Source: an uncultured delta proteobacterium (GTDB lineage Bacteria; Desulfobacterota; Binatia; UBA9968). From it: DNA of 64,000 nucleotides. The DNA lies in the NCBI GenBank assembly GCA_963737905.1, contig CAVTUQ010000007.1, positions 352,001 to 416,000 of the forward strand, in the 5' to 3' direction. The position numbers and the translations under genes are program-made. Shown here piece after piece: positions 21,959 to 61,041 of the stretch. The notes under the pieces were generated by a model. It saw only the letters and a list, made by a program, of their open reading frames with translations. It did no database searches and was not told the origin of the DNA. Position 1 is the first letter of the stretch; each line of letters opens with the position of its first letter.

Positions 21959-22023
21959 GGTTCAAAGTTCAAGGTTCAATGTTTTAGACCCGGAGGCTGG
22001 ACTTTGAACGCTGAACCTCGAAC
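21959..22023. repeat. heptamer-repeat hairpin
   Basis: (GTTCAAA/GTTCAAG/GTTCAAT) ... (TTTGAAC/GCTGAAC/CTCGAAC). Confidence 0.75.
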
Positions 22024-22029
22024 GTTACG

Positions 22030-22980
22030 TCAGTAGTTGGGTTTATGTTCGAAGTAGTGGGTGGCGTTGATGATGCGAATGGTGCGGGTACTCGAGCGCA
22101 TCACCACCGACTGGGTCGTCGCGCCGCCGGGAAAAAAATGTACGCCCTGCAGGTAGTCGCCGTCGGTGACTCCCGTTGCCGCAAACATCACATCGCCCGC
22201 CGCCAGCTCTTCGATGGAAAACTTTTTGTTGATATCTTTGATTCCCATCTTCGTGGCCCGCTCGATTTCGTCGTCGTTTCTCGGTTTAAGACGGCCCTGC
22301 ATGTCCCCTCCGACACAGCGCAGCGCGGCGGCGGCCAGGACTCCTTCGGGAGCGCCGCCGATCCCCATCAAGAGATCAATACCGGTCTCCGGCTTGGTCG
22401 TCGCGATGGCCGCAGAGACGTCGCCGTCGCCGATCAAGCGAATGCGCGCGCCGGCTTGGCGGACTTCTTTGATAAGCGCTTCGTGGCGCGGACGGTAGAG
22501 AATAATCACCGTCAGGTCTTCGACCTTGCACTTCTTCGATTCGGCGAGCGCGTTGAGATTTTGTGTCGGGGTTTTGTCGAGATCGACGACGCCTTTTCCG
22601 GCTGGGCCGACGGCGATCTTATCCATGTAGGTGTCCGGACTATGGAGAAAGTTTCCATGCTCGGCCATGGCGATAACGGCCAGCGCGTTGGGGGCGCCGT
22701 TGGCGCAGATCGTCGTCCCTTCCAACGGATCCAAAGCGATGTCGACCTTCGGTCCCCCAGCTCCGACCTTTTCACCGATGTAGAGCATCGGCGCCTCGTC
22801 CCGCTCGCCTTCGCCGATGACGATGGTCCCATCGATGGTGAGGGCATTAAAAGCCCGGCGCATCGCATCGACTGCCGCCTGGTCCGCGGCCGTTTCGTCG
22901 CCACGCCCTGTTAGCCGGGCACAGCTCAGTGCCGCCGCTTCAGTAACGCGAACAGCTTCTAAGGCTAAGTTTCGGTCCAC
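22030..22980 (-). CDS. glpX: class II fructose-1,6-bisphosphatase
   Basis: VIGEGERDEAPMLY, DPLEGT, GGAPEG, ATGVTDG. Confidence 0.96.
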   Translation of the reverse strand: MDRNLALEAVRVTEAAALSCARLTGRGDETAADQAAVDAMRRAFNALTIDGTIVIGEGERDEAPMLYIGEKVGAGGPKVDIALDPLEGTTICANGAPNALAVIAMAEHGNFLHSPDTYMDKIAVGPAGKGVVDLDKTPTQNLNALAESKKCKVEDLTVIILYRPRHEALIKEVRQAGARIRLIGDGDVSAAIATTKPETGIDLLMGIGGAPEGVLAAAALRCVGGDMQGRLKPRNDDEIERATKMGIKDINKKFSIEELAAGDVMFAATGVTDGDYLQGVHFFPGGATTQSVVMRSSTRTIRIINATHYFEHKPNY

Positions 22981-25773: not shown

Positions 25774-25839
25774 AGTTTCGAGTTCCGAGTTTAAAGTTCC
25801 GGGTTCTGACTCGAAACGCAGAACTCGAAACCCGAAACT
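25774..25839. repeat. heptamer-repeat hairpin
   Basis: AGTTTCGAGTTCCGAGTTT ... ACTCGAAACGCAGAACTCGAAACCCGAAACT. Confidence 0.75.
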
Positions 25840-25842
25840 TGT

Positions 25843-27021: not shown

Positions 27022-27109
27022 TAAGCTCTACCTCATGCGCTTAAGTAGTGCATTCTAAACTACTTTTATAGGCGATGGTAGCGAAGGGTGCAACTTGGGA
27101 AAATCTGGA

Positions 27110-27186
27110 GTTCAAGGTTTAAAGTTCAATGTTCAAAGTCGCGCGAACGAGTTGAAACGTTGAACCTGGAACATTGAACCTTGAAC
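27110..27186. repeat. heptamer-repeat hairpin
   Basis: GTTCAAGGTTTAAAGTTCAATGTTCAA ... TTGAACCTGGAACATTGAACCTTGAAC. Confidence 0.78.
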
Positions 27187-27203
27187 GGGGCCTTCATCGT
27201 GCA

Positions 27204-49837: not shown

Positions 49838-50833
49838 TCACTTAATCACTTTATCCGCCCGCGCCAACACATTCGGCGGGATTGTAAGGCCTATCTGTTT
49901 AGCGGTTTTCAGATTGATGACGAACTCGAACTTTGTCGGTTGCTCGACTGGCAGGTCGCTGGGCTTGGCTCCCTTCAAGATTCTGTCCACGAAATAGGCG
50001 ACGCGCCGGTAACTGTCCGCGAGGTCCGCCCCGTAGTACATGAGGCCGCCGGCATCTACAGCTTCTTCGACGCCATACATCGCCGGCAGTCGGTTCTTTA
50101 ACGCAAAGCCCGCAATCCGTTGTACGTTAGCACGTATTTGCCGGCCTCCGCCGGGCACAAAGATTCCATCCGGGCGCTGCTTATTTAGGGCAGCGAATAC
50201 CTTCTCTAAACCGTCCGCATCGCGTACCTCCCAAGACTTAAGAGTCAATCCCAGCGCACGCGCCGTGACAGGGAGACCCTTTCTTACCTCGTTCGCAGTG
50301 CCCTGAGCGGCAGGATCGTAGAGAACCGCGACACTGGAAACCTTGGGAACGGCTTCTTTGAATAGCTCAAGCCGCTTACCACCTAGTTCACGGCCAAGGT
50401 TTGTGATGCCGGTAACGTTGCCACCGGGACGGGCAAGGCTTTCAACGAAGCCTGCTTTCACAGGATCAGTCCCAACGCCCACCATGACGATCGGAATCGT
50501 CTTGGTTGCATTCTTGGCTGCCCGGATCTCCGGGTCCCCTCCCGATACCACGATCAAATCAACCTTCAGACGCACCAGTTCAACGGCAAGTTCAGGAAGC
50601 CGATCGAGCTTACCTTGCGAATAGCGATAATCGAAGGCGATGTTTTGTCCTTCTGTGTAGCCAAGCTCACGTAGTGCCATCCGAATCGGCTTAGAACGCC
50701 GGAAATCAGTAGTGGGGTCGGTCGACGATAGATACCCTACTCGGGAAACTTTCTTCGGCTGCTGCGCGGCGGTGAGATTGCAAAGCGCTAAGAGCAGAGC
50801 GCCAAGCGCGAAAAGCAGGACATTTTTTCTCAT
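49838..50833 (-). CDS. ABC_sub_bind paralog I (array)
   Basis: Signal peptide AAQQP; [30 protein letters not shown]. Confidence 0.92.
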   Translation of the reverse strand: MRKNVLLFALGALLLALCNLTAAQQPKKVSRVGYLSSTDPTTDFRRSKPIRMALRELGYTEGQNIAFDYRYSQGKLDRLPELAVELVRLKVDLIVVSGGDPEIRAAKNATKTIPIVMVGVGTDPVKAGFVESLARPGGNVTGITNLGRELGGKRLELFKEAVPKVSSVAVLYDPAAQGTANEVRKGLPVTARALGLTLKSWEVRDADGLEKVFAALNKQRPDGIFVPGGGRQIRANVQRIAGFALKNRLPAMYGVEEAVDAGGLMYYGADLADSYRRVAYFVDRILKGAKPSDLPVEQPTKFEFVINLKTAKQIGLTIPPNVLARADKVIK

Positions 50834-50882
50834 CTGTTCTCCGGTTCTTTCCGCTTGGCTCTTTACCCCATGCGCTTTGCCG

Positions 50883-50946
50883 TCATCGGATTACCTTATC
50901 GGCTCGATACGGCACGGACTGCGAAATCGTCACGCCGACCTGAGCT
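50883..50946 (-). pseudogene. orphan 3' tail of an ABC_sub_bind gene
   Basis: Reads QVGVTISQSVPYRADKVIR*, resembling the tail of 163-1149. Confidence 0.75.
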
Positions 50947-51010
50947 TGACTCTAACGTTGATACCGACTCCAACTTGTCTGTAATCTAATGCCATTGTAA
51001 ACTCCAAGCG

Positions 51011-51295
51011 GTGTTAATCGATGAATTGCTGTGGCCTCAGGATCGAATTAATCATATCGGTAGACACCGCGTGCGACCGGAAGAGGTTGAAGAAGTATGT
51101 TTCGGCAACCCCTGGGTACGACGCACCAAAGCAACTGGCAAAAACCCAGTTTACTATGTCCTCGGCCAAACCCGTTCTGGCCGGTACTTGTTTTGTGTTG
51201 TGGTCCAGTTTCCCAATCGCAAAGGTTTCCCGGTCACCGCTCGAGCTATGACGGAAAAAGAAAAGCGACAATTCAGGCGATGGAAAAGACAATGA
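51011..51295 (+). CDS. BrnT-family toxin
   Basis: W..H..RH.V..EEVEEV, GQT..GRYL..V, VTARAM..KE. Confidence 0.85.
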   Translation: MLIDELLWPQDRINHIGRHRVRPEEVEEVCFGNPWVRRTKATGKNPVYYVLGQTRSGRYLFCVVVQFPNRKGFPVTARAMTEKEKRQFRRWKRQ

Positions 51296-51570
51296 AAGCA
51301 CGTAAGATCCCTTCCACTGATTCAATCGAAGAACTTGCTCGGTTCTGGGACCGCCATGACCTGACAGATTTCGAGGACCAACTTGAGGAAGTCAGTGCTC
51401 CGGTATTTACTCGTAAGTCCACCACAGCGGTGACGGTTCGATTGCGTCCTAACGAAGCCAAAGAAATCAAGCGAGTTGCCAAAACCAAACGTGTGCCAGA
51501 AGCGACGTTAATACGCCGCTGGGTCATCGAGAAACTGCGCGCCTCCGGCACGTCGTCTAGAAAGCGCTGA
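51292..51570 (+). CDS. CopG/BrnA-type antitoxin
   Basis: EELARFWDRHDLTDF plus C-terminal RHH (VTVRL..LIRRW); ATGA-coupled to the toxin. Confidence 0.85.
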   Translation: MKARKIPSTDSIEELARFWDRHDLTDFEDQLEEVSAPVFTRKSTTAVTVRLRPNEAKEIKRVAKTKRVPEATLIRRWVIEKLRASGTSSRKR

Positions 51571-51613
51571 TCTTCACGGGTGGATACAACCCTAGCCTTT
51601 CGCCCCTCTTGGG

Positions 51614-51660
51614 TCACCGAATCACCCTGTCCGCTCGCGCCAATACGTTGGGTGGGATCG
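51614..51660 (-). pseudogene. orphan 3' tail ('empty slot' 1)
   Basis: AAAATAGGTAGGC joined directly to GATCCCACCC... = [14 protein letters not shown]. Confidence 0.8.
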
Positions 51661-51728
51661 CCTACCTATTTTAGATTTTCGATTTTGGATACATCAACTC
51701 CGCTCAGTACAGGTTTTAGATTGTTCGA

Positions 51729-52708
51729 TCATCGGATAACTCGATCTGCTCTGGCCAATACGTTCGGGGGTATGGTCAATCCGATCTGTTTCGCTGCTTT
51801 CAGATTGATGATGAACTCGAACTTCTTCGGCTGCTCCACCGGGAGATCGGCGGGCTTGGCACCTTTAAGAATCTTATCAACGTAAGTGGCGGCGCGTCGA
51901 AACAAGTCTGTAATGCTCACACTGTAGGTCATGAGACCACCGTCTTCGACAAATTCTCCATGGAGTGGTATATCGCCGGGATTCGGTTTTTGACCGCGAG
52001 TTCTACAACCTGTTTTCGTCCAAAAGTGATGACGGGGTTCTGCAACGTAAGAACTGCGGCAGCACGACCCTTACTCGCGCTTGGAACGCAATCTCCAAAT
52101 CTTTGGGAACTCTTACTTCTAAGTATTGAACTTGCACCCCCAGCACTCCTGCAGCGAGTTCTATGTCTTTTAACGCTTGCGTATTGCCTGGCTCGGCCGA
52201 AGTCCCGAAGACGGCTAGGCGGGAGAGTCTAGGAATAGTCTCCTTTAGAATCTCTAGTTGTTTGCCGCTTATCACTGGGGAGAGATTTGACATCCGGTAA
52301 TGTTTCCGCCAGGTCGCGCAAGGCTCGCAACAAAACCCGACCCTACGGGGTCACCTTCATTACCCATGACAATGGGAATCGTAGCTGTCGCTTCCTTGGC
52401 GGAACGGGTCGCTGCCGGACCAGCCGTGACGATGACATCAACCTTGGAACGCGCTAGTTCCACCGCGAGGCTAGTTACTTCATTCGATTTGCCCTCTCCA
52501 AACCGATACTCAATGATAATATTTTTTCCCTCCAAGTATCCAAGTTCACGCAGCCCTTCGCGGAAGGCCTCTACCCGGGCCGCCACAATAGAAGCGGAGG
52601 CCGCGCCTAGCAAAGCAATCCGAGGAATTTTCGCTGGCTGCTGCGCCCAAACTGGATCGCAAAGCGCAGGAGCAAGGGTAAGCGCAAACCAATAACTGTC
52701 TTTCTCAT
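51729..52708 (-). pseudogene. ABC_sub_bind paralog H (several frameshifts)
   Basis: ORF pieces 52272-52760, 52003-52293 and 51729-51932 concatenate to one paralog; start MRKTVIG. Confidence 0.85.
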
Positions 52709-52761
52709 TAGGCTTTTCCCGGTGTTTTTCTTGCTCTCTGGCCCTTGCTCCTTGCTCCATG

Positions 52762-53790
52762 CTATTTAATTACTTTATCCGCTCGCGCCAGCACATTCGG
52801 CGGAATCGTGAGGCCGATCTGCTTGGCGGCTTTCAGATTGATGATGAATTCAAAGTTTATCGGTTGCTCCACGGGAAGATCGGCTGGCTTAGTTCCCTTT
52901 AGAATCTTGTCTACGAACACCGCTGCTCGTCGCGCCAAGTCGTCACGCCGCGCGTTGTAGCTCATAAGCCCACCGTCCTCGACAAATTCTCGCCTATAGT
53001 AAATCGCAGGAAGCTGACTCTTGGCTGCAAATTCCACAATCCGTTTCCTCTGTGCAGTAGCGAACGGGCCATTTGTTACAATGAGAGCTTCGGTACGCGC
53101 CTTGGAGATGGCTTCCAATGCGCGACTAAGATCGTCGGGGTTTTTTACCACCTCAAATTGAAGCTTGAGTCCCAATGATCGGGCTGCTTCTTCGGTATCT
53201 TTCAGTGTCACCGTAGAGCCGAGGGTACCCGGGCCCCGAAGGTCAATTACGTGTGAGAGCCGTGGAAGGGTTTCCTTGAGCAACTCAAGCAGTTTCCCTC
53301 TTAGTTCAGCGGAAAGACTCGCCAGCCCCGTGATATTACCGCCAGGCCGGGCAAGGCTCGCGACCAAACCTGCTCCTACGGGATCAGTTTCATTTGTCAT
53401 AACAATGGGAATCGTGCTCGTTGCTCCTTTGGCTGCGCGTGTATCTGCCGCGCCGCCCGTAACGATGACATCAACCTTTAGCTGGACTAGCTCAGCCGCA
53501 TTTCGTCGGACCTGAGCGGGCCTTCCCTGCGCAAATCGCCATTCAATGACGATGTTCTGCCCTTCGACGTATCCCAGTTCGCGCAGTCCCTGGCGAAATG
53601 CCTCTTCGTTGTTTTCTCCGGAACTACTCGCTGATTGATAGCCGATCCGTGGGATTTTAGTTGGCTGCTGCGCCTGAGCGGGGAAGCAGGGAGCAAGGAG
53701 CATGGAGCAAAGAGCCAGAAACACAGCGGCGCAAAGGCCTCGCGCTAATTGCCACACGCTGAACGACCTTTCAACGAATTTTTTCCTCAT
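52762..53790 (-). CDS. ABC_sub_bind paralog G (array)
   Basis: Intact; family motifs; signal ending LALCSMLLAPCFPAQAQQP. Confidence 0.92.
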   Translation of the reverse strand: MRKKFVERSFSVWQLARGLCAAVFLALCSMLLAPCFPAQAQQPTKIPRIGYQSASSSGENNEEAFRQGLRELGYVEGQNIVIEWRFAQGRPAQVRRNAAELVQLKVDVIVTGGAADTRAAKGATSTIPIVMTNETDPVGAGLVASLARPGGNITGLASLSAELRGKLLELLKETLPRLSHVIDLRGPGTLGSTVTLKDTEEAARSLGLKLQFEVVKNPDDLSRALEAISKARTEALIVTNGPFATAQRKRIVEFAAKSQLPAIYYRREFVEDGGLMSYNARRDDLARRAAVFVDKILKGTKPADLPVEQPINFEFIINLKAAKQIGLTIPPNVLARADKVIK

Positions 53791-53841
53791 TAGTTCTCCA
53801 GTGTGTTTTCTGGCTCCCTGCCCACAGCTCCGTGCTCCCTG

Positions 53842-54875
53842 CTATTTGATGACCTTATCCGCCCTCGCCAGCACGTTGGGCGGAAAGTGAGCCCGATCTG
53901 CTTGGCGGCTTTGAGATTAATGATGAGATCGAACTTGATCGGCTGCTCCACGGGAAGGTCCGCTGGCTTTGCGCCCTTCAAAATCTTGTCCACATAAGTG
54001 GCCGCGCGCCGGTGCAGGTCGGCCAAGTTCGTCCCGTAGGACATGAGGCCACCGGACTCCACAAACAAGCTAAAGGGGTACATCCCCGGCAGCCGGTTCT
54101 TTGCCGACAGGTCCACGATCTGCGTTCGACGTTCGATGGTGACAGCATGCGGCAGTACGATAAGCCCCTGGGGATGGCCCTTGGTGAGATTCGCGAAGGC
54201 GTGCTCGATCTCGGCTGGTCCCACCACCTCTTGGCGCTGGGGAGTCACCTTCAACGCTTGGGCCGTCGCTTGGATCTGTGCCCAATAGGTGCGGTGGGAC
54301 GAGGTCTGGGAAACTGCGAGGACGGCGACGCGGGAGATCTTGGGAACCGCCTCCCTGAGCAGCTCCACCCATTTCCCTGCGAACTCTTCGGCTTGATTTG
54401 AGAAGCCGGTAATGTTCCCGGCCGGCCGCGCGAGGCTGGCGACGAAGCCGCTCTCAACAGGATCGCCCATACCCGCCACGACGATGGGTACGGTTCGGCT
54501 CGCCTGCCGAAGAGCTGCCACCGCTGCGTTGCTCTGTGTAACGATCACGTCTACCCTGAGATTGATCAGCTCGTCGGCAAGGGCCGGGAAGCGATCGGGC
54601 GTTCCCTCCGCCCAGCGGTAGTCAATGAAGATGTTCCGGCCCTCGACGTAGCCAAGTTCGCGCAGCCCTTGGCGGAAAGCTTCAAGGAGGGGGGCGCCCG
54701 CGGAAGGGGTGAAGGCACCCAGGTAACCTATCCGCGGGATCTTCGCCGGCTGCTGCGCGTGGGTGGGGAGGCAAGGAGCGAGGAGCATGGAGCAAAGAGC
54801 AAGAAACACTGCGGCGTAACGGCTTCGCGCCAAGAGCGAAGCGTTAAACGAATTGTCCAAGACCTGTCTTCTCAT
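53842..54875 (-). CDS. ABC_sub_bind paralog F (frameshift near 53886 at the T-I-P-P codons)
   Basis: Start MRRQVLD; the [13 protein letters not shown] tail is present in the shifted frame. Confidence 0.85.
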
Positions 54876-54929
54876 TGAGTTCTCCCATGGGTTTTTCTGG
54901 CTCCCTGCTCTTAGCTCCATGCTTCCGTG

Positions 54930-54976
54930 CTATCTTATGACCTTGTCCGCCCTTGCCAGCGCGTTAGGCGGGATCG
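54930..54976 (-). pseudogene. orphan 3' tail ('empty slot' 2)
   Basis: AAAATAGGTAGGC joined to GATCCCGCCT... = IPPNALARADKVIR*. Confidence 0.8.
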
Positions 54977-55044
54977 CCTACCTATTTTAGATTTTCGATT
55001 TTGGATACATCGACTCCGCTCAGTACAGGTTTTAGATTGTTCTA

Positions 55045-56030
55045 TCATCGGATAACTCGATCTGCTCTGGCCAATACGTTCGGGGGTATTGCCAATCCGA
55101 TCTGCTTGGCTGCTTTCAGATTGATGATGAACTCGAACTTCGTCGGTTGCTCCACAGGCAGGTCAGCCGGCTTGGCGCCTTTCAAAATCTTGTCAACATA
55201 AGTAGCAGCGCGACGAAACAAGTCGGCACCGCTCACGCCATATATCATCAGCCCGCCGGCTTCCACAAATTCTTCCCTGTAGTATATCGCCGGTAGCCGG
55301 TTTTTTACCGCGAGGTCAATTATCTGTGCTCGCTGAGTATTAGCGACGGGGTTCTGTAGTACGAGGAAAGCTTCCGCGCGCCTTTTGATGGCGGCTTGGA
55401 ATGCATTCTCGACATCCTGTGGACTTAGAACGTCGAAGTATTGAAGCTTAACCTTGAGAGCCCCAGCAGCAATTTCCACCTCTTTTAGCACTTGTGCGTT
55501 GCCCGAGTAGGTTGAAGTCCCGAAGACGGCCACGCGAGAGAGCTTGGGAATCATCTCCTTCAGAAGCTCCAACTGTTTTCCGCTTATTTCTGGCGCAAGC
55601 GTGGACAATCCCGTAATGTTCCCGCCAGGCCGCGCAAGACTGGCCACGATCCCAGAACCGACCGGATCGCTATCGTTAGTCATGACAATGGGAATCGTAA
55701 CGGTTGCTTCCTTGGCGGGACGAGTCGCCGCGGGACCAGCCGCGACAATGACGTCGACTTTGAGCCGAACCAGTTCGGCCGCAAGGTCAGGCAGCCGATC
55801 GAGTTTTCCATTCGCCCACCGCCAATCGATAAGAATGGTTTTACCCTCGACATGCCCGAGCTCGCGCAATCCCTGCCGGAATGCTTCAGTGCGGGTCGCG
55901 TTAGCGGAAGGGACGGTAGTAGCTAGGTATCCGATCGCGGGATTGTCGTCCGTTGCTGCGCCGTGGCCGCAGCCACACAGGTCGCCAAAGTCACAAAGAT
56001 TGGAAAGAGTCGCACGACGATGTGCTTCAT
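55045..56030 (-). CDS. ABC_sub_bind paralog E (frameshift near 55938, just after the signal peptide)
   Basis: GGAGG RBS; MKHIVVRLFPIFVTLATCVAAATAQQRTTIP, then IGYLATT in the next frame. Confidence 0.85.
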
Positions 56031-56057
56031 GCCTCCACCTATTTTCGATTTTAGATT

Positions 56058-56474
56058 TTAGATTGCCGATTGAACGGAGAACTTCCATTTACGCCTTTGA
56101 AGTGCTCGAATCGACGCTACCGTCATCGCTATGATCTCATTGGTTTCCTGCAACAATTCCGACAGCCGAGCCTCTGCTATGAGCTCGGATTCAATAAGTA
56201 GTTCCATCCAGTACCCTGATTCGTCCGCCTCTTCTTCAACTATCCGGAGTTTGGCGATCACATCGGCTGTGGACTTGCCGCGACACGCTGCTCGATAGTT
56301 AACGCCAATCGAAGTGCCAGATCGGATCAACTGTCTACCTAGGACATCCGCGCTCCGGTTCCTCGGCAAGGCGTTCGACGACTTTGATGACGCGTAATGT
56401 AGCTGCTTTGTGCGCTTCTTGAATAAGTTTTCATCTATCTTTTTTCTCCCGCAATCGAAAATCGAAAATGTCAT
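56058..56474 (-). CDS. four-helix bundle protein (23S rRNA IVS/TIGR02436-like), possibly degenerate
   Basis: GRQLIRSGTSIGVNYRAACR, KLRIVEEEADES..W; compensating indels convert the expected KQLALRVIKVVEA into KQLHYASSKSSNA. Confidence 0.85.
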   Translation of the reverse strand: MTFSIFDCGRKKIDENLFKKRTKQLHYASSKSSNALPRNRSADVLGRQLIRSGTSIGVNYRAACRGKSTADVIAKLRIVEEEADESGYWMELLIESELIAEARLSELLQETNEIIAMTVASIRALQRRKWKFSVQSAI

Positions 56475-57433
56475 CTTATGACCCGATCCGCCCGCGCTAG
56501 AACGTTCGGCGGAATTGTTAATCCGATCTGCTTAGCCGCCTTCAGGTTGATTACGAACTCGAATTTTGTCGGTTGCTCGACCGGTAGATCTTGCGGCTTG
56601 GCACCCTTGAGAATCTTGTCCACGTAGGTGGCGGCGCGGCGGTACAGATCGCTAAGCAGAGGACCATAAGCCGCGATGCCGCCTTCCTCGGCAAATTGTC
56701 GAGTCGGATACATGCCAGGAAGGCGATGCTTTAGCGCCAGCTCGGCAATCTGTTTTGAGTGAAGGGTAACAAGCGGACTCAATACAACCAAAAGGGCATC
56801 AACGTGAGCCTTCGACATCTCTACAAATGCCTTGTCGATGTCATCAGCCTCGCGCAACTCAATGGGATGTAGCGGTACCGATAACGCTTTTGCCGCATCC
56901 TGAGTTTCCTTGAAACCTAAGCTGACCCTACTCCACAGCGCCGCTACGCGGCGGCTTTTTGGAAACGCTTCTTTGAGCAGCTCGACCCGTTTGCCGCTGA
57001 GATCGGACGCAAGGACCGTCAGACCCGTAATATTTCCCCCGGGCTTCGCTAAACTCTCCGCCAAGCCTCGCTCTATCGGACCGCCGCTGGTCATGACGAT
57101 CGGCACGGTGCTCGTCACCTTGCGCGCCGCCTGAGCGCTGAGCGACGAGGTGGTAACGATGACATTTACTTGTTTTTGTACCAGATCGGCAGCCAGATCC
57201 GGCAAGCGATCGTAATTGCCTTCGGCAAAGCGGTATTCGAAAATTACGTTCTTTCCTTCGGTGTAGCCACGTTCGCGCATCCCTTGTTTAAACGATTCCA
57301 GGTGCGGCTGATCCTGCCCGCCAACGAAGAGAATCCCGACGTGGGGAATTTTTGGGGTCTGCTGCGCCCAAACTAGAGCGCAAAGCGCATGGAGCAAAGC
57401 GGTAAGCGCAAAGCCAATAACTGTCTTTCTCAT
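56471..57433 (-). CDS. ABC_sub_bind paralog D (array)
   Basis: Intact; DQPHLxSF motif shared with 163-1149. Confidence 0.92.
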   Translation of the reverse strand: MRKTVIGFALTALLHALCALVWAQQTPKIPHVGILFVGGQDQPHLESFKQGMRERGYTEGKNVIFEYRFAEGNYDRLPDLAADLVQKQVNVIVTTSSLSAQAARKVTSTVPIVMTSGGPIERGLAESLAKPGGNITGLTVLASDLSGKRVELLKEAFPKSRRVAALWSRVSLGFKETQDAAKALSVPLHPIELREADDIDKAFVEMSKAHVDALLVVLSPLVTLHSKQIAELALKHRLPGMYPTRQFAEEGGIAAYGPLLSDLYRRAATYVDKILKGAKPQDLPVEQPTKFEFVINLKAAKQIGLTIPPNVLARADRVIR

Positions 57434-57478
57434 AGATTTCTCCCGGTGTTTTTCTTGCTCTTTGCCCTTTGCTCCATG

Positions 57479-58513
57479 CTATTTAATTACTTTATCCGCT
57501 CTCGCCAGCACGTTGGGCGGGATCGTCAAACCGATCCGTTTCGCGGTTTTAAGATTGATGATAAACTCAAACTTCTTCGGCTGCTCTACCGGTAAATCCG
57601 CCGGCTTGGCGCCTTTCAAAATCTTGTCAACGTAAGTAGCAGCGCGACGAAACAAATCGGTATAGCTGACGCCGTAGAACACGAGGCCACCGTCTTCCAC
57701 ATACTCTGGCCTGCTGTATATTGCGGGAAGCCGGTTTTTTATCGCGCGGTCTGCCACCTGTCCTCTTTGAGCGGTGAGGAGAGGGGTCGTCACCACGAGG
57801 ACTGCATCGGCGTGCTGTTTGGTTGCGGCGTGGAAGGCAGTCTCGATATCCTTGGGTTCTCGTATTTCCAGATATTGAATCTGCACCCGTAACGCATCCG
57901 CGGCGAGGTTGATCTCTCTTAAGGCTTGCGGGTGGCCCGGTTGGCTCGCATTCCCGAGAACGGCCACGCGGGAGAGCTTAGGAACGATTTCCTTTAGAAG
58001 CTCTATTTGCTTTCCGCTTATCTCCGGAGCAAGGGTTGCCAGTCCAGTTATGTTCCCGCCAGGGCGGGCAAGGCTCTCAACAAATCCGCTGCCGACAGGA
58101 TCATCATCATAGCCCATGACGATGGGAATCGTAGCAGTCGCTTGCTTCGCAACGCGAGTGGGTGGCGGCCCCCCCGAGACGATCACGTCTACGTTAAGAC
58201 GCACTAGCTCGGCTGCAAGTGCAGACAAGCGATCCGCTTTCCCTTCTGAAGATCGCCACTCGATAACAATGTTTTTTCCCTCCACGTACCCAAGCTCACG
58301 CAGGCCCTGTCGGAACGCCTCGATACGAGCCGAGATAGTGGAAGGCGGTACAGCAAGGAGAAACCCGATGTGGGGGACCTTCGCCGGCTGCTGCGCCTGG
58401 GCGGGGAAGCAGGGAGCAAGGAGCATGGAGCAAAGAGCCAGAAACACAGCGGCGCAACGGCTTCGCGCTAAGAGGGAAGCATTAAACGAACTGTCCAAGA
58501 CCTGTTTTCTCAT
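57479..58513 (-). CDS. ABC_sub_bind paralog C (array)
   Basis: GGGAG RBS; start MRKQVLD; family motifs. Confidence 0.92.
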   Translation of the reverse strand: MRKQVLDSSFNASLLARSRCAAVFLALCSMLLAPCFPAQAQQPAKVPHIGFLLAVPPSTISARIEAFRQGLRELGYVEGKNIVIEWRSSEGKADRLSALAAELVRLNVDVIVSGGPPPTRVAKQATATIPIVMGYDDDPVGSGFVESLARPGGNITGLATLAPEISGKQIELLKEIVPKLSRVAVLGNASQPGHPQALREINLAADALRVQIQYLEIREPKDIETAFHAATKQHADAVLVVTTPLLTAQRGQVADRAIKNRLPAIYSRPEYVEDGGLVFYGVSYTDLFRRAATYVDKILKGAKPADLPVEQPKKFEFIINLKTAKRIGLTIPPNVLARADKVIK

Positions 58514-58567
58514 TGAGTTCTCCCGTGGGTTTTTCTGGCTCCCTGCTCTTAGCTTCATGCTTCCCTG

Positions 58568-59599
58568 CTATCTTATGACCTTGTCTGCCCTCGCTAGCAC
58601 GTTGGGCGGGATCGTGAAGCCGATTTGCTTAGCTGCTTTGAGGTTGACGATGAATTCGAACTTTGTGGGTTGTTCGACGGGCAGGTCGGCCGGCTTGGCG
58701 CCCTTCAGAATCTTGTCCACATAGGTGGCGGCGCGGTGGTACAGGGCAGCAAAGCTTACGCCATAGCTCATCAGCCCTCCATCGTCCACCCACTGGGACT
58801 GCGGGTAGATTGCCGGCAGCCGATTCTTTAGCGCGAGTTCCGCGATCTGTTTGCGTTTGGGATTGAAAACCGGAGTCTGCAACACGAGCATTGCGCCGGC
58901 CCGTTCTTTATTTGCGGCTTGGAATGCAGGCTCAATATCTCGCGGATCTGCTATCTCGAGGTATTGAAGCTTTACCCCAAAGGCCCCCGCGGCAAGTTCA
59001 ATTTCTCTCAAGGTTTGCGCGTTACCCGGTTCGGCTGAAGTTCCCAGAACAGCCACGCGGGAGAGCCGTGGAACGATCTCCTTGAGAAGCTCCAGTTGTT
59101 TTCCGCTCAACTCCGGTGAAAGCGCCGATAGACCCGTGATGTTTCCTCCCGGCCGCGCAAGACCGGCAATGAAACCATTGCCGACGGGGTCGGGATCAAA
59201 TGCCATGACGATGGGAATCGTAGCTGTTGCCTGTTTGGCCGCGCGGGTCATGGTCGGGCCGCTCGTAACGATGACATTTACTTTGAGGCGCACGACCTCG
59301 GCGGCTAGTTCACTCTGTCGTTCGACCTTGCCGTCTCCAGATCGCCACTCGATGACGATATTTTTCCCTTCTACGTAACCCAGTTCCCGCATCCCCTGAC
59401 GGAAGGCCTCGTTGCGAGCGACGTTTGAGGAAAGCGACGAGATGGTCAGGTATCCCACGTGCGGGATTTTTCTCTGTTGTTGGGCCGACGCGGTCGAACA
59501 AACCGCAAAGAGTGTGGCGCATATTAGAATTGCGGATTTGAGATTGCGGAATGCGGATTTTAGGTCAATGTCGAGACAGTGAAACAAAATTCGATCCAT
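58568..59599 (-). CDS. ABC_sub_bind paralog B (array)
   Basis: Intact; N-terminus contains heptamer-derived KSAFRNLKSAI. Confidence 0.92.
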   Translation of the reverse strand: MDRILFHCLDIDLKSAFRNLKSAILICATLFAVCSTASAQQQRKIPHVGYLTISSLSSNVARNEAFRQGMRELGYVEGKNIVIEWRSGDGKVERQSELAAEVVRLKVNVIVTSGPTMTRAAKQATATIPIVMAFDPDPVGNGFIAGLARPGGNITGLSALSPELSGKQLELLKEIVPRLSRVAVLGTSAEPGNAQTLREIELAAGAFGVKLQYLEIADPRDIEPAFQAANKERAGAMLVLQTPVFNPKRKQIAELALKNRLPAIYPQSQWVDDGGLMSYGVSFAALYHRAATYVDKILKGAKPADLPVEQPTKFEFIVNLKAAKQIGFTIPPNVLARADKVIR

Positions 59600-59636
59600 T
59601 GCTGTTTCCCCTCAATTCGAAATTCGCAATCCGAAA

Positions 59637-60620
59637 TTATCTAATAACCTTGTCCGCCCGCGCCAGCACATTCGGCGGAATCGTGAGCCCGATCTGCTTC
59701 GCCGTTTTGAGATTTACCACCAGCTCGAACTTTGTCGGCTGCTCCACCGGTAGGTCGGCAGGCTTACGGCCTTTCAAGATTTTATCCACAAAGCTCGCTA
59801 CTCGTTCATACATCTCCATAACGTCCGCACCGTAAAACATGAGCCCACCTACATCCACCGCATCTCTGGCGTCATACATTGACGGCAACCGGCTCTTTAT
59901 GGCAAAGGCCGTAGTTCGTTCAAAGCTACGTTGCATCAGTGGGCCGCCAAGCACAGAGATTCCATCAGGGCGCTCCTTGTTTATCGACGCGAATACTCTG
60001 TAAAAGCCATTCGCATCGCGTACATCACGACGCAATATCGTTAGATTCAGCGCGCGCGCCGATGATGAGAGCACTTCCTTGAACTCCAACATGTTGCGCT
60101 TATTGTTAGCCTCGTAAAGGATGGCGATGCGGGTAGCTTTCGGAACCGCTTCTTTGAGCAGCTCCAGCCGTTTGCCGCCGAGATAACCAGAGATATTTAT
60201 ATAACCGGTAATGTTCCCGCCGGGACGGGCAAGACTTTCGATCAGGCCGGCCTCGACGGGATCGGTCCCACCACCCACCATAACAATCGGAATCGTCTGG
60301 GTCGCATTCTTGGCTTCCAGGATCGGCCTGTAGCCTCCCGCTACGAGAATGACGTCAACCTTCAGATTCACCAGTTCGGCCGCAAGCCCAGGAAGCCGAT
60401 CAAGCTTGCCTTCTGCACTTCGGTACTCCATCGAAATATTCCGTCCTTCGACGTAACCGAGGACTTGCAATGCCCGGCGAATCTCCTGCTTGCGGTCGGA
60501 GTCAAGTGCCGCCGGCTGCGTGGTCAGATACCCGATCCGTGCAACTTTTTGCTGCGCCTCGGCGAACCTGCCTGCCGCAAGAAGGCCAAGTGTAACTAGG
60601 CAGACAACTTTCTTATTCAT
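59637..60620 (-). CDS. ABC_sub_bind paralog A (first gene of the array)
   Basis: Intact; family motifs. Confidence 0.92.
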   Translation of the reverse strand: MNKKVVCLVTLGLLAAGRFAEAQQKVARIGYLTTQPAALDSDRKQEIRRALQVLGYVEGRNISMEYRSAEGKLDRLPGLAAELVNLKVDVILVAGGYRPILEAKNATQTIPIVMVGGGTDPVEAGLIESLARPGGNITGYINISGYLGGKRLELLKEAVPKATRIAILYEANNKRNMLEFKEVLSSSARALNLTILRRDVRDANGFYRVFASINKERPDGISVLGGPLMQRSFERTTAFAIKSRLPSMYDARDAVDVGGLMFYGADVMEMYERVASFVDKILKGRKPADLPVEQPTKFELVVNLKTAKQIGLTIPPNVLARADKVIR

Positions 60621-60637
60621 GGCCTTTCCCTTTTAGC

Positions 60638-60684
60638 GCAATGGTTATGCCAAAAAACGGAGGCTATGCAAATCACAACTTATG
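60638..60684 (-). promoter_or_regulatory. sigma54 (-24/-12) promoter plus conserved 15-mer at the head of the array
   Basis: Minus strand TTGGCATAACCATTGC (GG-N10-GC); AAATCACAACTTATG identical to 10465-10479. Confidence 0.55.
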
Positions 60685-61041
60685 GATGAATACGGGCTAA
60701 AAAGCGTCTCAAATTTGCTACAGGAAGAGTAGCAAATTTGATTCAATTGAAAAGGAAATGTTGAAAAAGTCTTGGCATACATCAGTTCGATGAAACGAAA
60801 GCACATTGAAATCCTTGAATTCCACAAGAGGTGGCGTGCTATTTTCAGCATCTCAACTGTAATCTTCAGCCAAAGCCAGACTGGGCACGCTTTTTAGCTT
60901 TCATTGCTGCCAGTGCAACTTAACGAGGAGATATGAGAACCGACTGCGGTCGCGCAAGGTGCACCTAGCATGATGTTTCGTAAATCAGTCGACGTTTGGC
61001 GTTGTGAGAATTTCGTTCCTCTGATCAGGGCTTATTTCCTA

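Follow-up and report, generated by a model that had tools for sequence, protein, structure and literature searches.

The window analysed here is a stretch of 64,000 nucleotides from an uncultured delta proteobacterium (Desulfobacterota; Binatia; UBA9968; assembly GCA_963737905.1, contig CAVTUQ010000007.1, positions 352,001–416,000), and its right end, at about 49.8–60.6 kb, is occupied by a minus-strand tandem array of binding-protein genes. In this report we describe the long inverted repeats found at the junctions of these genes and the genome-wide class of heptamer-armed palindromes to which they belong. Two neighbours in the array, called B and C, belong to the family PF04392 (ABC_sub_bind), both scoring above its Pfam gathering cut-off of 25.9 bits (Table 1). 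The junction between them spans 58401–58568, the minus strand being the mRNA sense, and a repeat search reported its arms as 58412–58447 with 58529–58564 (36 nt, 75%) and 58401–58431 with 58538–58568 (31 nt, 81%). The arms are as an earlier note on this DNA had described them, the 5′ arm beginning in the stop codon of gene B and the 3′ arm lying in the signal peptide of gene C, with the ribosome-binding site (RBS) and the ATG in the loop. Directly after the TAG, the 5′ arm reads as the imperfect 7-nt units AGCAGGG AAGCATG AAGCTAA GAGCAGG GAGCCAG. In the loop, which is 81–106 nt long, an A-rich tract leads to the RBS GGGAGAA (58524–58518), and gene C starts at its true ATG (58513–58511) with 22 codons of the amino-terminal n-region; beyond them lies the second heptamer array, whose translation VFLALCSMLLAPC precedes an AQA-QQ cleavage-type motif. 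In their n-region codons the long loops also share a conserved small hairpin, rich in GC and with a U-rich run behind it (GCGCGAAGCCGTTGCGC CGCTGTGTTT; window 58452–58468 and 53729–53745). A terminator scan found 14 candidates against 13.9 expected and a promoter scan 2 against 6.0, neither being an enrichment, and Rfam gave no match at E ≤ 1 over 50000–61000.

Seven named junctions were folded as the mRNA strand and each was compared with 200 dinucleotide shuffles. None of the 200 shuffles was as good as the observed sequence at B-C (58398–58572, −71.7 kcal/mol, z −4.75), F-G (53680–53848, −86.8 kcal/mol, z −8.14), the so-called empty slot-F (54780–54927, −58.9 kcal/mol, z −3.74) and tail-I (50775–50885, −47.7 kcal/mol, z −4.84). 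The folding energy is marginal at C-D (57378–57490, −33.5 kcal/mol, z −2.23, 3 of 200 shuffles as good) and G-H (52640–52775, −41.8 kcal/mol, z −1.81, 8 of 200), and it gives no support to A-B (59530–59645, −22.9 kcal/mol, z −0.07, 87 of 200); the earlier view that most junctions are long hairpins therefore stands clearly for four of the seven, weakly for two, and fails for A-B. As a codon-preserving control the signal-peptide codons were resampled synonymously 1000 times, and the resamplings that reached the observed arm complementarity were counted: none at F-G, 4 at C-D, 10 at tail-I, 16 at B-C, 33 at A-B and 57 at slot-F, with 804 at the control gene A, which has no upstream paralog. Judging from these counts, part of the pairing is explained by the encoded peptide and the choice of codons adds more. 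Some members of the array are broken or reduced. Gene H (52003–52760) is split into two frames, and the “empty slots” at window positions 54927–55045 and 51650–51700 consist of the lone last ~45 nt of a binding-protein gene (...PPNALARADKVI*), each remnant being joined to the same GGGATCGCCTACCT + ATTTTAGATTTTCGATTTTGG array.

Table 1. Genes, junction hairpins and related palindromic elements of the window (positions in window coordinates; a dot marks features given no strand).
Feature	Position	Strand	Description	Evidence
Gene B	58568..59599	-	PF04392 ABC_sub_bind binding protein	Pfam 159.7 bits, E 1.2e-46
Gene C	57479..58513	-	PF04392 ABC_sub_bind binding protein	Pfam 182.3 bits, E 1.6e-53
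B-C 5′ arm	58529..58568	-	Post-stop spacer of ~5 heptamer units (AGCAGGG-type), starting in the TAG stop of gene B	
B-C loop	58448..58528	-	A-rich tract, RBS, ATG and n-region codons MRKQVLDSSFNASLLARSRCAA	
B-C 3′ arm	58401..58447	-	GCTCCTT-type heptamer array; its translation VFLALCSMLLAPC forms the hydrophobic core of the signal peptide of gene C	
A-B inverted repeat	59536..59637	-	24 nt, 75%, TTTCGGA/AATCCGC family; n-region residues LKSAFRNLKSAIL encoded by the 3′ arm; weak fold	
C-D hairpin	57382..57484	-	30 nt, 80%; 43-nt loop with RBS and ATG	
D-E junction cassette	56041..56474	-	PF05635 (23S_rRNA_IVP) gene at 56058-56474 with its own RBS	53.6 bits
Empty slot-F hairpin	54784..54923	-	18-nt core at 94%, longer in the fold	
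F-G hairpin	53685..53843	-	37 nt, 81%; 85-nt loop; strongest of the set	
G-H junction	52640..52775	-	Weaker hairpin before the broken paralog H	
Tail-I hairpin	50780..50880	-	41 nt, 71%; 19 nt between the arms; ATG of gene I at 50833	
Intergenic element	27109..27186	.	GTTCAAN arms, 16-nt loop; dozens of copies in related genomes	TRF
Intergenic element	25774..25840	.	Short loop, GTTCCGA-type arms	TRF
Intergenic element	21960..22030	.	Short loop, between convergent genes; absent at the orthologous site of a congeneric genome	TRF

The same kind of array is found throughout the genome to which the window belongs (G000; 6.7 Mb, 46 contigs, 54.5% G+C). The tandem-repeat program TRF returned 2780 rows for it, 661 of them with period 7, and these fall into 188 canonical heptamers. 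The arms are short imperfect tandem arrays, mostly of 7-nt units with about four fixed and three variable bases, and those of the window have period 7 and 2.1–5.4 copies. Adjacent period-7 arrays within 600 nt of each other form 193 pairs, which are inverted in 92 cases, direct in 13 and neither in 88. The first arm contains more G than C in 70 of the 92 inverted pairs, and the polarity is fixed for each heptamer family (18:1, 15:1 and 6:0). Loop lengths of the inverted pairs show a peak at 15–25 nt and a tail at 40–150 nt, and seven loops measure 378–517 nt. Merged arrays number 701, of which 60 lie at most 250 nt upstream of one of the 99 paralog N-termini, the remainder being elsewhere. Within the signal-peptide region itself, arrays are present in about 23 of the 99 paralogs. 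This count and the codon choice at the window junctions, which matches the upstream arm, bear out the earlier claim that heptamer repeats serve as signal-peptide coding DNA. AGCNNGG, the arm family of B-C itself, also fills intergenic DNA away from binding-protein genes, at C28:163–208 kb of the genome. In that region (G000:C28:163000-209000), 45 kb without binding-protein genes, arrays of the AGCNNGG (about 37), TTTCGGA and GTCAGA families crowd nearly all intergenic spacers, with families sometimes interleaved in the order A, B, A′, B′, and four PF05635 genes are located there. At G000:C43:10255-10289 an AGCATGG-type array stands inside an apparent long open reading frame (ORF), where it would encode a hydrophilic insert, so that arrays are not limited to spacers and signal peptides.

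The long-loop members lead to a known RNA element. At the D-E junction a PF05635 gene sits between inverted GATTTTA-type arrays (56041–56064 and 56453–56469), and the 5′ arm of this cassette starts 1–2 nt past the stop of gene D. We scored the inverted repeats around PF05635 genes, a score of at least 26 being taken as a pass. All 11 PF05635 genes of the genome have flanking inverted repeats (scores 26–54), which represent six or more families of heptamers or nonamers, while random 900-nt windows hold any array in 386 of 5000 cases. Taking the best PF05635 match of each genome in the same taxonomic family, 25 of 28 pass, one locus being too near a contig end, with a null of 4.4% of 500 random placements; phylum-wide, 26 of 27 genomes pass, three loci being too near contig ends, with a null of 0 of 131 and with arms mostly of period 7. 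GATTTTA, AGCATGG, GTCAGA and CAGTGAG arms flank PF05635 genes and also occur at binding-protein junctions. The intervening sequence (IVS) of the Coxiella 23S rRNA, as the part of its description used here has it, carries a PF05635-type (S23p) ORF in its loop, a terminal inverted-repeat stem of 28 bp that RNase III cuts in the middle, and tandem heptamers in its 5′ part whose number differs between strains (PMC4990558). Long terminal inverted repeats forming a stem are, in the same passages, common to the IVS of Coxiella and Leptospira (PMC4990558), and the junction arms of the window, 18–41 nt long and 71–94% complementary, compare with the IVS requirement of a stem of about 20–30 bp or more. 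The D-E cassette has exactly the build of an IVS as outlined there, with inverted heptamer arms and, in the loop, a PF05635 ORF with a Shine–Dalgarno (SD) sequence (PMC4990558). The hairpins of the window differ from IVS in lying between protein genes, in mRNA spacers, and not in helix 25 or 45 of the 23S rRNA; most copies here lack an ORF, and the loops at B-C and the other binding-protein junctions hold the start of the next gene, with one arm translated. Cutting by RNase III is known for the IVS from that account (PMC4990558), whereas here it would follow by analogy only, an RNase III gene being present in the genome. In a literature search on heptamer-built signal peptides, repeats in Binatia-like genomes and PF05635 with repeats, the arrangement was not found outside the Coxiella IVS paper.

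Junctions are exchanged between paralogs without their genes. Four junctions match B-C at 92, 83, 75 and 75% over 190 nt and stand beside gene bodies that are 66–67% identical in nucleotides (52–57% in protein), and the paralogs nearest to C (72–75% in nucleotides, 68–72% in amino acids) carry unrelated junctions (59–63%). Spacer, RBS and signal peptide thus travel as one module from paralog to paralog, whatever gene body stands behind them, and the earlier idea of a junction that is exchangeable at the DNA level is supported in this respect. The intergenic members are polymorphic by insertion or deletion. The element at 27109–27186 has dozens of matching places in three related genomes (74–97% identity), and at two orthologous intergenic sites of a congeneric genome, with flanking genes 89–91% identical, other sequence replaces the element. 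At one site orthologous to 27105–27190 (locus L165, G001:C456, ~1528–1763) there is an unrelated element of ~215 nt with terminal inverted repeats of its own. Palindromic elements of different kinds seem to have their hot spots in such intergenic spacers. A miniature inverted-repeat transposable element would combine terminal inverted repeats, a target-site duplication and presence/absence polymorphism, and of these traits inverted repeats and polymorphism were observed here.

Variation in the number of units was noticed at a few places. A copy on C27 (~11.3 kb; G000:C27:11286-11480, locus L126) has exactly one 7-nt unit fewer in its translated arm, and its loop ATG does not share the reading frame of the mature protein. 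The loop ATG is out of frame also in two GATTTTA-type paralogs (C7 near 453001 and C29 near 93320). These out-of-frame ATGs may reflect on/off switching driven by slippage, or decay. Contigs from four soil DNA runs over 50500–61000 were mostly paralog or other-organism noise and gave no usable joints. One soil-metagenome contig (depth 9) has 14 extra bases, equal to two heptamer units, at 56450 in the 5′ arm of the PF05635 cassette, a weak hint at unit-number variation between strains.

How often the two arms of a junction pair was asked across the paralogs and their kin. Gene C has 65 tblastn matches of more than 250 residues in its own genome and 110 in a genome-wide search, and all 12 other searched genomes of the same taxonomic family match it, with 1 to 101 matches each; the related records are metagenome-assembled genomes labelled Candidatus Binatia, Deltaproteobacteria, Syntrophobacteraceae and Thermodesulfobacteriota. 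For each start, the preceding 75 nt were set against the codons of the signal peptide by local-alignment complementarity (Smith–Waterman, SW, score), since duplex folding energies were noisy and discriminated too poorly. A simple SD rule served to choose the start codons. Paralogs and relatives do not count as independent observations, and the unpublished genomes G006, G012 and G053 enter the junction and PF05635-flank counts as single rows, with no claim made on them alone. In arm complementarity, 17 of 54 junctions of the genome exceed all 30 shuffles. Cognate arms reach SW ≥ 24 in 29 of 176 distinct junctions (this genome and its relatives) against 3.6% of non-cognate pairs, and SW ≥ 30 in 19 of 176 against 1.5%. 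The arm families at the junctions are AGCAGGG/GCTCCTT, GCAAAGC/GCGCTTT, CAGTGAG/CTTACTG, CAGTTGC/GGCAACTG and GATTTTA/TAAAATC. In the last of these the translated arm is hydrophilic (DNRKSKIENLK) and extends the n-region, and thus an arm need not be the hydrophobic H-region. At many junctions only one of the two sides carries an array.

The simplest account of the pairing would be composition: a purine-rich spacer and a pyrimidine-rich stretch coding for the Leu, Ala and Cys of a signal peptide, both periodic, might pair by chance. Dinucleotide and synonymous shuffles do retain much of the pairing, non-cognate arms pair at the 3.6% given above, and A-B is no better than its shuffles. Yet cognate arms pair 4.6 to 7 times as often as non-cognate ones, four junctions beat 200 of 200 shuffles, F-G beats 1000 of 1000 synonymous resamplings, and the hydrophilic-coding GATTTTA-type arms also pair, so that the shuffle, resampling and cognate-pair tests have largely refuted composition as the source and we consider it very improbable. 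A stronger contender holds that the stem is a selected mRNA structure, acting as a cistron insulator, a means to keep the RBS open, a 3′ stabiliser or a translation-sensitive RNase III switch, with the repeats as raw material. It can point to very stable stems that beat shuffles at four to six of the seven junctions, to an RBS and ATG that are always in the loop, to a 5′ arm that begins at the stop codon, and to 3′-arm codons that favour pairing beyond the need of the peptide (0–57 per 1000 resamplings at six junctions). The IVS stems of like build are, in the sections of PMC4990558 drawn on here, RNase III substrates, and the enzyme is encoded in the genome. Traces of selection on the RNA are nevertheless missing where they were looked for. 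The 29 significant stems hold 673 Watson–Crick pairs, 57 transversion-type mismatches, 17 G·U and 16 A·C pairs, that is no excess of G·U, mismatch proportions equal to random expectation and no bias to the mRNA strand. An alignment of eight homologous long-loop junctions (six from this genome, one each from G054 and G063) has an RNAalifold covariation term of +1.8 and any two-sided change in 3 of 40 pairs, and its arms are better conserved than its loop. At B-C the antisense RNA folds slightly better than the sense (−76.7, z −5.0, against −71.7), and the sense strand folded as DNA gives −33.8 (z −3.13, 1 of 200 shuffles as good). RNA-level selection is thus visible neither in the stems, nor in the alignment, nor in the comparison of the two strands. 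About five sixths of the family junctions do without pairing, and cleavage would destroy the downstream message. We therefore regard a selected mRNA structure as rather unlikely. The compensatory changes between arms by which the earlier note would have judged its folded junctions are scarce, and its statement that structure is conserved while sequence is not is right in part only: the junctions differ in heptamer family and each has its own complement, and within the homologous group of eight the arms are simply conserved. The translational-coupling switch that it also suggested is unlikely because the RBS sits in the loop and is not sequestered in the stem.

The other suggestion of that note was folded single-strand recombination sites of the attC kind, by which an integron integrase would shuffle binding-protein cassettes. 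In many attC sites, as in the arms here, the start coincides with or falls inside the stop codon of the preceding ORF, and the tandem gene array, the imperfect palindromes of 60–170 nt starting at an ORF end, the exchange of junction modules between paralogs and a full integron integrase on the same contig (TIGR02249, 456 bits against a cut-off of 265; G000:C7:226384-227478) all invite the comparison. An attC site has an inverse core RYYYAAC at its 5′ end and a core GTTRRRY at its 3′ end, but near the arm ends of the window junctions such core sites occur, on either strand, in none of six. Sites of this kind, recombined by IntI as a folded bottom strand with extrahelical bases, lie in arrays of unrelated promoterless cassettes next to intI/attI. 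The integrase is not adjacent but 125 kb upstream of the window, and no attC array was identified in its flanks, none built of heptamer repeats. The “cassettes” are all paralogs of one family, PF04392, the same elements are scattered in ordinary intergenic DNA, and the site overlaps the 5′ end of the next ORF: with the 3′ arm inside the next gene, a cassette boundary there would truncate that gene. An attC-like function thus finds hardly any credence with us. The left flank of the integrase contains, from reading the translations, lexA-like and imuA/imuB-like ORFs together with two PF05635 cassettes with GTTCAA-type period-9 arms, and the right flank contains small toxin–antitoxin-like ORFs.

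Heptamer tandem repeats of the same general kind as ours are known from cyanobacteria as short tandemly repeated repetitive (STRR) sequences. A second heptamer system, the TAACTGA repeats, is reported from Beggiatoaceae, Cyanobacteria and Bacteroidetes, with 169 direct sets and one indirect set in the part of the source drawn on here (PMC4679880). The TAACTGA repeats resemble our arrays in having two to six heptamers, mostly intergenic, often just before start codons and patchy in phylogeny, according to the same part of that source (PMC4679880). It describes mainly one heptamer in direct repeats (PMC4679880), whereas we see 188 heptamers, typically in fixed-polarity inverted pairs, with use as coding sequence, and the 40 commonest of the 188 canonical heptamers of this genome do not include TAACTGA (AACTGAT in canonical rotation). 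Repetitive extragenic palindromic (REP) sequences, with the bacterial interspersed mosaic elements (BIME) and the REPIN-RAYT system, are likewise abundant intergenic palindromes, often inverted doublets after stops, dispersed and polymorphic, as summarized in the portions of PMC3333891 and PMC8049555 drawn on here. They are mobilised by Y1 transposases of the RAYT type, whose genes they flank. In those portions a REP is one GC-rich palindrome of 20–40 nt (PMC3333891, PMC8049555), and the arms described here are tandem heptamer arrays. None of the five Y1_Tnp (PF01797) genes of the genome is flanked by arrays or by an inverted repeat above background (scores 16–22), and we rejected a link of the RAYT type; the associated gene here is PF05635.

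The analysis shows the junction hairpins to be members of a dispersed and polymorphic class of palindromes with heptamer arms, which in the paralog arrays enclose the translation start, with one arm translated. This anatomy and its statistics, the exchange of modules and the comparisons above lead us to think that the hairpins are probably IVS-type palindromic repeat elements, present lineage-wide and spread at the DNA level, which were co-opted as spacer, initiation region and signal peptide. Such an element has arms of fixed polarity, the G-rich arm first, around a loop that may be empty (15–25 nt), may hold a PF05635 gene (~380–520 nt) or may contain the next gene's RBS, ATG and n-region (40–110 nt). 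In the PF04392 arrays the C/T-rich 3′ arm is translated and would supply the hydrophobic core of a Sec signal peptide, and the whole module would be copied from one paralog to another through recombination at the DNA level, gene conversion or turnover of elements. The arms would then stay complementary because both were inherited or installed together in the DNA, and not because RNA pairing was selected. Once transcribed, a stem of 30–40 bp would be expected to act as an RNase III substrate, as in the 23S rRNA IVS, and by the same analogy a cut in each arm would shorten the upstream message to a point right behind its stop codon and take the RBS, ATG and n-region away from the downstream one unless initiating ribosomes hold the stem open. 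RNase III cleavage of the stem, and hence RNA processing, is plausible on that comparison.

Several observations weigh against this origin of the hairpins from IVS-type elements. Cognate complementarity is missing from about 84% of the 176 junctions, and at some there are arrays on both sides that do not complement each other; as most junctions lack cognate pairing, it is not obligatory for binding-protein genes. A few families supply most of the polarity counts, and these do not represent independent events. To call the elements mobile draws only on polymorphism and copy number, with no transposase or other enzyme tied to them. Formation and cleavage of the stem in transcripts are predictions. 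The excess over synonymous resampling might equally reflect selection for pairing, and the fixed conservation of the arms could in principle be purifying selection on RNA or on a protein-binding site.

A bolder form of the IVS-type reading can be offered only tentatively, and we think it fairly unlikely to hold in full. PF05635 genes with their heptamer flanks would be a general class of IVS-type cassettes, at home in mRNAs as well as in rRNA and excised by RNase III, of which the copies without an ORF would be non-autonomous derivatives. Such cassettes would have been domesticated to create and to swap signal peptides and initiation regions among ~100 paralogs, and 7-nt slippage would switch single paralogs off.

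Both the heptamer repeats of bacteria and the S23p/PF05635 protein of the rRNA IVS have been without an assigned function for decades, and here they are tied together outside rRNA, in a system of stem, loop cargo, RNase III and four-helix-bundle protein that is open to test. At the junctions one can also see, in a concrete case, how selfish repeat DNA turns into coding sequence: read in its three frames, the C/T-rich strand of a 7-nt array yields a hydrophobic stretch rich in Leu, Ala, Cys and Pro, the core of a Sec signal peptide, and the same module has been passed among the paralogs of a transporter family that has expanded hugely. Should RNase III in fact cut these stems, the message of each paralog would carry a built-in off switch that is sensitive to translation.

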